A DNA stretch of 64,000 nt from Candidatus Parcubacteria bacterium (GCA_025999395.1 AP024682.1:468680-532679); one strand, 5' to 3'; positions 33,426 through 35,105 are shown, counted from the first letter of the stretch. The notes: generated from the letters alone by a model not told the origin. Translations and numbers: made by a program.

Positions 33426-33555
33426 ATTAACCTTTACATCCCTTAAAAACTTTTTCGGTTGTCCCTTGAGACATCCTGCTTATAAAGCAAGATGGGTCGA
33501 AACTTGAGGATCCTCGACCAACTCCTCGACGTCAAAGACGCCATCGACGTAACAA

Positions 33556-35105
33556 AAATTAGTTGTTTCACGCACAGCTTCCGCTACACGTGCCTTGTTA
33601 CGACTTCTGCCGTGTCACCGAGCTTACCCTGACTCCGCTTAAAGCGAAGCTTCAGGTACTCCCGGCTCCCCTGCAGTGACGGGCGGTGAGTACAAGACTC
33701 GAGAACGTATTCACCGCGGCGTGCTGATCCGCGATTACTAGCGATTCCGGCTTCATGGAGTCGAGTTGCAGACTCCAATCCGAACTGGGGCAGGTTTTGA
33801 TGGGATTGGCTCCGCCTCACGGCTTGGCAACCCATTGTACCTGCCATTGTAGCATGAGTGTCGCCCAGGGCATCAAAGGGCCACGCTGATTTGACGTCAT
33901 CCCCTCCTTCCTCCCCCCTCTAAACCAACAAAAGATTACTAAACTCTTGCGGGCTTAGAGGGGGGCAGTCTCGCCTGACACTTGTAACAGGCGACAGGGG
34001 TTGCGCTCGTTACCCCACTTAAGGGAACAACTCAAGCCACGAGCTGACGACAACCGTGCAGCACCTGCCCTACCGTCCCAAGTAAACTTGGGAAGCTCTG
34101 ACTTTCGCCAGAGCGTCGTTAGGGTTTCGAGCCCTGGTGAGGTGCTTCGCTTACCGTCGAATTAAACCTCATGCTCCACCGCTTGTGCGAGTCCCCGTCT
34201 ATTCCTTTGAGTTTTAGCCTTGCGGCCGTACTTCCCAGGCGGTTCACTTAACGCGTTAGCTTCGCCACCGAGAGGGTCGATACTCCCGACAGCTAGTGAA
34301 CATCGTTTAGGGCGTGGACTACAAGGGTATCTAATCCTTTTTGCTCCCCACGCTTTCGCGCCTCAGAGTCAGAAGTGCCCCAGCAAGTCGCCTTCGCCTC
34401 TGGTGTTCCGCACGATATCAACGGATTTCACCCCTACACCGTGCGTTCCACTTGCCTCTGGCACCCTCTAGCCTGGTCGTATCTTCTGCGGGCTCACCGT
34501 TGAGCGGTGAGATTTTACAGAAGACGCACCAAGCCTCCTACGCGCCCTTTACGCCCAGTAAATCCGGATAACGCTCGAGGTCTCTGTATTACCGCTGCTG
34601 CTGGCACAGAGTTAGCAACCTCTTATTCCCGCGGTACCGTCAGCTTGCGCTTCTTCCCGCGGAAAAGGAGTTTACGACCCGAAGGCCTTCATCCTCCACG
34701 CGGCGTCGCTCCGTCAGGCTTTCGCCCATTGCGGAATATTCTCGACTGCTGCCACCCGTAGGTGTACGAGCCGTGTCTCAGTCTCGTCGTCGGGGAACAG
34801 CCTCTCAGCCCCCCTACCGGTCGTAGCCTTGGTGAGCCATTACCTCACCAACTAGCTGATCGGACCTAGGCCCATCACCAAGCGGATTGCTCCTTTAACC
34901 AAATTGTCTGACGACAACTTGGCCACATCGGGTATTAGCCCCGCTTTCGCGGGGTTATTCCCGTCTTGGTGGTAGGTTACCAGGGTGTTACTGACTCGTT
35001 CGCCACTATACGGCCTTGATGTAATCTTAGCCGTATCGTTCGACTTGCATGCCTTATCCACGCCGCCAGCGTTCATCCTGAGCTAGGATCAAACTCTCAA
35101 AGAAG
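33556..35105 (-). rRNA. rrs: 16S ribosomal RNA (boundaries +/-20 nt)
   Basis: The plus strand shows reverse complements of universal 16S blocks: 5' end CTGAGCTAGGATCAAACTCT (27F, 1 mismatch), GTATTACCGCTGCTGCTGGCAC (519 region), ACGGGCGGTGAGTACAAG (1392 region), CCTTGTTACGACTT (1492 region); helix 45 with GGAA loop is conserved. Confidence 0.95.

Follow-up and report, generated by a model that had tools for sequence, protein, structure and literature searches.

Parcubacteria that lack the anti-Shine-Dalgarno (anti-SD) motif of 16S rRNA have been described before. Tsurumaki et al. (2022, PMC9297842) found the motif in just 48% of Parcubacteria, noted that the lineages without it overlap the group lacking ribosomal protein uL1, and considered that SD helices probably do not form in the anti-SD-less members. 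In a survey published in PLoS One in 2024 (PMC10783764), Ca. Campbellbacteria and Ca. Wolfebacteria are classed as 'SD-scarce lacking CCUCC'. Likewise, Amin et al. (2018, PMC6107228) listed 128 of 20,648 taxids as being without an anti-SD, and these are generally also without SD motifs.

The locus described here lies in a 64,000-nt stretch of DNA from Candidatus Parcubacteria bacterium (AP024682.1:468680-532679), an ultra-small member of the candidate phyla radiation (CPR); the stretch is hereafter called the window, and all coordinates are counted from its first letter. An exact-protein look-up assigned it to the MAG assembly GCA_026419535.1, contig JANZZF010000004.1. It is like the published anti-SD-less Parcubacteria in its clade, as judged by its 16S relatives, in having a tail without CCUCC(U), and in having no SD. 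Nothing essential differs between them, and this MAG and its ACUAA variant are not named in those papers. The trait is lineage-wide in Parcubacteria and already published, and this genome is a further example of it. Three attributes reported below, namely a leaderless promoter geometry, a conserved tail core and a trailer hairpin, did not turn up in the literature searched.

Several more distant systems share some of these characteristics. The ribosomes of Bacteroidia are reportedly 'SD-blind', a description said to come from Jha et al. of the Fredrick laboratory in NAR in 2021. Bacteroidia lack SD motifs genome-wide and have A-rich upstream regions, and in these respects they resemble the window. 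However, they keep a canonical anti-SD that is hidden by bS21, bS18 and bS6, whereas here the anti-SD sequence itself is gone and therefore no sequestration is needed; a retained but sequestered anti-SD of the Bacteroidia type was not found in this 16S rRNA. Reduced endosymbionts and some Mollicutes and Flavobacteriia, reportedly treated by Lim et al. in 2012 and Nikolaeva et al. in 2021 as well as by Amin et al. in 2018, have likewise lost both CCUCC and SD, and they too have small A/T-rich genomes and have lost ribosomal proteins. In contrast to these, the lineage here is an independent one, its loss is ancient and extends over a very large environmental clade, and its tail core is conserved rather than idiosyncratic.

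Leaderless translators, including Actinomycetota, Deinococcus, many archaea and mammalian mitochondria, have in common with the window that the -10 box lies a short, fixed number of nucleotides from the start codon, and the mammalian mitochondrial SSU rRNA is also without an anti-SD. Unlike those systems, the geometry here is seen only in a subset of genes, the first of their transcription units. Actinomycetota furthermore still have the anti-SD, and their leadered genes make use of SD, which sets them apart from the present case. Nothing specific on leaderless translation, short release factor 1 (RF1) or monomeric PheRS in CPR was found in the literature searched.

The 16S rRNA gene and its 3' tail

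The features of the 16S transcription unit, together with the gene for the nuclease expected to process its transcript, are given below.

35251..35278, minus strand: rRNA promoter, TTGACA-16 nt-TGcTATACT, with 11 of 12 consensus matches and a TG extension
35203..35220, minus strand: leader strand of the processing stem, UUUUUUGGUUGUCCCUUG, which pairs with the trailer strand
33556..35104, minus strand: 16S rRNA gene (Rfam RF00177, 1446 bits, model positions 1-1533)
33569..33592, minus strand: helix 45, CACGUGUAGC-GGAA-GCUGUGCGUG, with its conserved GGAA loop, placed by covariance-model alignment
33556..33568, minus strand: 3' tail, AAACAACUAAUUU, aligned column for column to GAUcACCUCCUUu
33450..33468, minus strand: trailer strand of the processing stem, CAAGGGACAACCGAAAAAG, complementary to the leader at 35220-35203
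33398..33428, minus strand: intrinsic terminator, a 12-bp stem followed by a T-run
2739..3473, minus strand: rnc, encoding RNase III (Pfam Ribonucleas_3_3 at 7.7e-42, plus dsrm)

Alignment to the Rfam bacterial SSU covariance model establishes that the 16S gene is full length and untruncated and that it runs from 35104 to 33556 on the minus strand, which corrects the strand described in a first-pass annotation of the window. The alignment reveals no large insertion, given 1549 nt against 1533 model positions. The insertions known from CPR 16S genes, which are introns or IVS, measure 100 bp or more and recur at ten sites (PMC11270868), and an insertion of that kind is ruled out here.

When the 3' part was rescanned, helix 45 proved to be intact, with all pairs standard and high posterior probability, just as the first-pass annotation had read it from its conserved stem and GGAA loop. 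The 13 unpaired nucleotides that follow (33568-33556) read AAACAACUAAUUU, where the consensus is GAUcACCUCCUUu (also written GAUCACCUCCUUU). The anti-SD-equivalent positions, 33563-33559, are occupied by ACUAA in place of CCUCC. The same annotation had claimed that this tail lacks CCUCC and had suggested alignment to the Rfam SSU model as a check; at the structurally aligned positions the claim is borne out, and it is confirmed that the anti-SD has been lost. CCUCC was also not found in the approximately 160 nt of RNA that lie 3' of the tail, up to the terminator, and the mature 3' end of the 16S rRNA is predicted to fall near 33556.

The 16S gene (33398-35278, minus strand) is a stand-alone transcription unit with a strong promoter of its own. 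It is not followed by a 23S gene, a 5S gene or spacer tRNAs, which means that the rRNA genes are unlinked, and SSU rRNA and tRNAs are the only such genes in the window. The computed energy of the whole leader-trailer duplex, which has a trailer hairpin inside it, is -88.5 kcal/mol. We propose that the two ends of the 16S precursor pair in a leader/trailer stem of the RNase III type, which carries this clade-specific hairpin, in which case RNase III would be the enzyme expected to cut the stem.

The closest 16S matches that share the lineage-specific helix 45 are records of Paceibacteria, Minisyncoccia, Jorgensen-, Ryan-, Taylor- and Nomurabacteria, a list that reflects 16S matches and not a tree. 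Species-representative genomes were scanned with a pattern that fixes the end of helix 44 and a loop-closing variant of helix 45, and 120 loci were returned. Among these, every locus with the CACGnGUAGC form of helix 45 seen in the window lacks CCUCC (27 of 27). Their tails are A/U-rich and unchanged in length, and they carry the names just listed, with Parcubacteria in addition. Other CPR (Magasanik-, Uhr-, Falkow- and Moranbacteria) and non-CPR bacteria retain GGAUCACCUCCUUUC. A metagenome scan with the exact helix 45 yielded 101 contigs, of which 100 are without CCUCC. The sole exact-helix contig with a near-canonical tail, GAUCAUCUCCUUUC, is L131 (contig Ga0172379_10002643), whose 16S sequence is 75% identical to that of the window; it may represent an intermediate or else a state that was retained. 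The comparison with the 16S genes of relatives, another check that had been suggested, thus finds CCUCC missing from more than 100 related contigs that share helix 45. The accompanying remark that the arrangement is rare in bacteria holds overall but not within this clade, where the trait is common.

In a comparison of 79 distinct tails, positions 1 to 10 conform to a conserved G-R-A-W-C-A-A-Y-U-A (also given with U at position 8), and positions past the tenth drift. Conservation reaches 100% for G at position 1 and for A at position 3, 92% and 90% for A at positions 6 and 7, 87% for U at position 8, and 100% for U at position 9. Directly after helix 45, relatives keep the GGAUCA-like start of the canonical tail, as in GGAUCAAUUA. 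As judged from these sequences, the change of the anti-SD is old, inherited and common to the lineage, and the tail appears to be still constrained.

Start codons and proposed modes of initiation

The gene set for the window comprises 55 non-overlapping ORFs of at least 90 aa, for which the 20 nt upstream of each start were examined; starts were called crudely, as those of the longest ORF, and the scope is the 64-kb window. The upstream regions are 80% A+T, and the frequency of G at positions -16 to -4 never exceeds 0.18. SD enrichment was not found before the 55 starts, where the duplex energy to the canonical tail averages -2.29 kcal/mol compared with -1.74 kcal/mol for shuffles (p = 0.16), and this mean is weaker than that at internal ATGs (-3.84). 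Nor was enrichment found in 480 genes of related contigs (clade p = 0.34).

With the same pipeline, SD was detected in both positive controls, E. coli K-12 (49 kb, p = 2.8e-4) and B. anthracis pXO1 (50 kb, 33% GC, p = 2.5e-4), and in each of them the frequency of G peaks at 0.4-0.5 around -14 to -7; across the SD tests, positive controls gave p = 3e-4 to 1e-3. Given that these controls show SD, we consider the null result in the window to be meaningful. A first control set, consisting of short rRNA-adjacent loci of canonical-tail genomes, was dropped as uninformative after it gave no SD signal even in Actinomycetota and Chloroflexota. The reasons were that at 60% GC the start of the longest ORF is an unreliable guide and that many such genes are leaderless.

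A few SD-like strings do exist in the window, in numbers close to those of shuffles; rnc, for example, has GAGGAGG 11-17 nt upstream, and the ORF at 59326 is preceded by GGAGAGGGAG. The GAGGAGG string, one of the few strong ones, is located within 3474-3493 (minus strand), upstream of the rnc ATG and in the 3' end of nusB; given the absent anti-SD, it probably occurs there by chance.

These results agree with the first-pass annotation, which had checked 12 start codons, had found none with an SD motif, and had proposed SD-independent initiation with the rRNA-side partner also lost. The unenriched 55 ORFs bear out the former point. The latter is supported by the absence of CCUCC and by a free-energy comparison against CCUCC of the kind that it had recommended for the whole genome, in which neither the window nor the related contigs gave SD enrichment.

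The positions of promoters suggest how some of these genes may be translated. In the window, 4 of 7 cases have a perfect TATAAT whose end falls 5-9 nt ahead of the start codon (0.6 expected, p = 0.0014), as do 28 of 82 in the anti-SD-less clade (6.8 expected, p = 4.5e-11). No such pile-up at 5-9 nt was found in the controls, with 2 of 24 in canonical-tail CPR loci (p = 0.61) and 0 of 6 in pXO1. Many of the start-proximal TATAAT boxes have the TGn of an extended -10, and some of the boxes in the window come after a terminator. The following example lies near the 16S gene, and similar cases are found at 14997 (tmk, minus strand), 46742 (rpiB, minus strand) and 61177 (dprA, plus strand).

33365..33379, minus strand: leaderless-type start by promoter geometry, TGaTATAAT ending 8 nt before the ATG of a response-regulator gene

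When a -10 box lies 5-9 nt before the start, transcription is predicted to begin at or next to the AUG and to yield a leaderless mRNA. On the strength of this geometry, leaderless mRNAs are the likely replacement mechanism for promoter-proximal genes, which would be translated from transcripts whose extended -10 box sits that short distance ahead of the start. For internal or leadered genes, starts would be selected through their A/U-rich, weakly structured surroundings. The predicted 40-nt MFE is weakest at starts (-2.5 compared with about -4.2 kcal/mol), and GC content is 20% upstream as against 36% in coding sequence. Unstructured A/U-rich leaders with low structure are the usual mark of SD-independent initiation. 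On leadered genes, the AUG would be selected by the 30S or 70S ribosome together with bS1, initiation factors and fMet-tRNA.

We therefore favour, at a probability of roughly 0.85, the interpretation that in this Paceibacteria window the anti-SD has been replaced by an A/U-rich tail of the same length, that the genes are without SD, and that initiation is SD-independent, proceeding by way of leaderless mRNAs and A/U-rich leaders.

Alternative accounts of the tail

The alternative that survives best concerns the order of events. Most Paceibacteria lack Era, which binds GAUCACCUCC (PMC10582724, PMC12641178), and within our main interpretation the literature makes it plausible that the loss of constraint on the tail is tied to the loss of Era from the clade and to a simplification of the ribosome such as the loss of uL1. 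The alternative is a Bacteroidia-like sequence in which SD-independence came first in the wider CPR and the anti-SD of Paceibacteria, freed from Era and other constraints, decayed neutrally afterwards, leaving a tail without a role. We give this scenario somewhat less than even odds, and it refines the order of events in our main explanation without contradicting it. In its favour, Era is present in ABY1, a class that keeps the tail (PMC12641178), and CPR neighbours that retain the anti-SD are also without SD enrichment (n = 132, p = 0.31), although that figure comes from crude start calls at short loci beside rRNA genes, and the high-GC control group failed the same test. Loci of CPR with CCUCC but unenriched for SD include L003, L015, L029, L033, L041 and L055, among others. 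The conserved CAAUUA core, however, speaks against pure neutrality. With the crude start calls in mind, we consider that non-use of SD may have come before the anti-SD was lost.

A more elaborate proposal, which we regard as rather unlikely, is that the clade has undergone a coordinated, mitochondrion-like re-engineering. This would combine mainly leaderless 70S-type initiation, a selected G-R-A-W-C-A-A-U-U-A core that has taken on a new role in structure or in mRNA docking, 3' maturation that is independent of Era and directed by the trailer hairpin, an RF1 without domain 1, a single-chain PheRS of mitochondrial type and the absence of uL1.

It is very improbable that the new A/U-rich tail compensates for the old one by pairing with a new A/U-rich, SD-like upstream motif. 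Conservation of the first ten or so tail positions across deep divergence does suggest that selection persists, and the A/U-rich upstream regions contain TAATTT and AAAATT at about two-fold over shuffles. Yet pairing between the upstream regions of the window and the actual tail does not exceed that of shuffles (-1.37 compared with -1.66 kcal/mol, with a fraction at or below -4.4 of 0.018 compared with 0.066), and therefore there is no compensatory 'new SD'. A search for over-represented non-SD upstream motifs returned only homopolymeric A/T-rich k-mers, and the tail has complementarity to none of the enriched motifs. Moreover, by our own nearest-neighbour estimate six A-U pairs have about zero net stability, and Amin et al. 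(PMC6107228) found a variant-SD/variant-anti-SD pair in none of their 128 organisms.

Even less credence is due to the idea that an insertion has moved the true 3' end further downstream, where GGAUCCUC would serve as a real but degenerate anti-SD. The first-pass annotation had allowed for this and had placed the motif about 85 nt downstream. The motif does exist, at 33513-33506, which is 43-50 nt past the tail, and it belongs to the following element, whose conservation in relatives implies that it is functional somehow.

33490..33527, minus strand: pre-rRNA trailer hairpin, GAGGAGUU-GGUCGAGG-AUCCUCAAG-UUUCGACC, identified by covariation and holding GGAUCCUC at 33513-33506

In an alignment of 26 distinct copies of this 38-nt element, the 8-bp stem is paired in 96.6% of cells, compared with 28-45% when the partner is slid. 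Five of the eight stem pairs exhibit compensatory changes, and both sides have changed in 35 cells, compared with 11±2.5 in shuffles. A covariance model built from the alignment (R1) scores 53.8 bits on the window hairpin and matches 64 of 100 anti-SD-less sources, with one copy just 3' of the 16S gene (L097, L129, L149, L156 and L167 are among the relatives with the hairpin). It matches none of 93 canonical-tail loci (685 kb). The loop consensus is GGAKCCUYWAAGU, with AGGWGUU ahead of it, and an Rfam scan of the trailer found no known family.

Thus the place of GGAUCCUC is in a hairpin, on the loop side of its covarying stem, and not in a single-stranded tail, and the motif begins at a variable distance from helix 45 among relatives, 29-116 nt. 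Relatives' loops differ, reading CCUUA, CCUUU, CCACA or CCAAA, and CCUCC occurs anywhere in 140 nt in just 3 of 105 trailers. The motif also lies within the leader/trailer processing stem, a region that is normally trimmed, there is no gene-side SD with which it could pair, and the GGAUCA-like tail start stays right after helix 45 in relatives. These observations refute a CCUCC-bearing tail beyond an insertion. The covariation and position of the hairpin indicate that it is probably a processing signal of the pre-16S trailer and not a displaced anti-SD.

Finally, although rRNA regions of MAGs are often mis-assembled and rnhB of the same window looks frameshifted, we give practically no weight to a mis-assembled, chimeric or decaying 16S pseudogene, because the covariance model matches the 16S gene over its full length with a high score and the helices are intact, the gene is flanked by a canonical promoter, a processing stem and a terminator, this type of tail recurs across many studies on more than 100 independent contigs, and anti-SD loss has been reported independently (PMC9297842, PMC10783764).

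Other genes of the window and meaning for the clade

Several other translation genes of the window have unusual characteristics, beginning with the surroundings of rplK.

14371..15520, minus strand: rplK followed directly by tmk, without rplA (uL1) in its canonical slot, from Pfam hits

The gene order is secE-nusG-rplK and then tmk and gatB (14371-16184, minus strand), with rplA, rplJ and rplL missing from the canonical cluster. The absence of rplA beside rplK may be a further likeness to the uL1-less group of anti-SD-less Parcubacteria, and no Ribosomal_L1 match was found among the ORFs of the 64-kb window. Within that scope, the adjacency of rplK and tmk is consistent with a uL1-less member of the Parcubacteria.

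Release factor 1, encoded at 35756-36490 (plus strand), has just 244 aa and aligns only from residue ~107-112 of full-length RF1 proteins, and therefore the whole of domain 1 is lacking. The loci of 23 relatives contain ORFs of 240-260 aa that are truncated in the same way, often near the 16S gene and rpmE, and no description of such a short RF1 was found in the literature searched. The PheRS encoded at 55543-56712 (minus strand) is a single chain with a class-II core and a C-terminal FDX-ACB domain. In the PDB it matches the monomeric PheRS of human mitochondria best (2e-56) and bacterial alpha subunits less well (3e-42), and pheT was not found adjacent to its gene.

Stop codons at the 54 ORF ends of the window are TAA in 37 cases, TAG in 16 and TGA in 1, the sole TGA being in the ATGA overlap of nusB and rnc (3470-3473). 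Avoidance of UGA as a trait of the clade was ruled out: the clade's loci have 19% TGA as against 1 of 54 in the window, and therefore the scarcity of UGA is specific to this genome or its sub-lineage.

The RNase HII gene rnhB (4247-4976, minus strand) is split into two overlapping ORFs in different frames, an N-terminal part at 4644-4976 and a C-terminal part at 4247-4675, the alternatives being a frameshift, a pseudogene or an assembly error. The window also contains a type IV pilus cluster (PilB, PilC/T2SSF and pilins) as well as large pilin-like proteins with Laminin_G_3 (ConA-like lectin) domains, at 26224-29081 and 54274-55542 (minus strand) and at 29103-32794 and 38816-40021. The Laminin_G_3 proteins may be adhesins for host attachment.

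The window offers a clean, well-controlled case of a bacterium without either half of the SD interaction, a phenomenon already on record for the clade. Gene finders that rely on RBS models will mis-call starts in such genomes, and the annotation of 16S 3' ends in the clade should not be 'repaired' to CCUCC. Similarly, expression constructs for the few cultured Paceibacteria/Minisyncoccia should not depend on SD. The leaderless geometry, the conserved replacement tail and the clade-specific hairpin suggest that this clade would make a good natural model of SD-free, and possibly 70S-leaderless, initiation.
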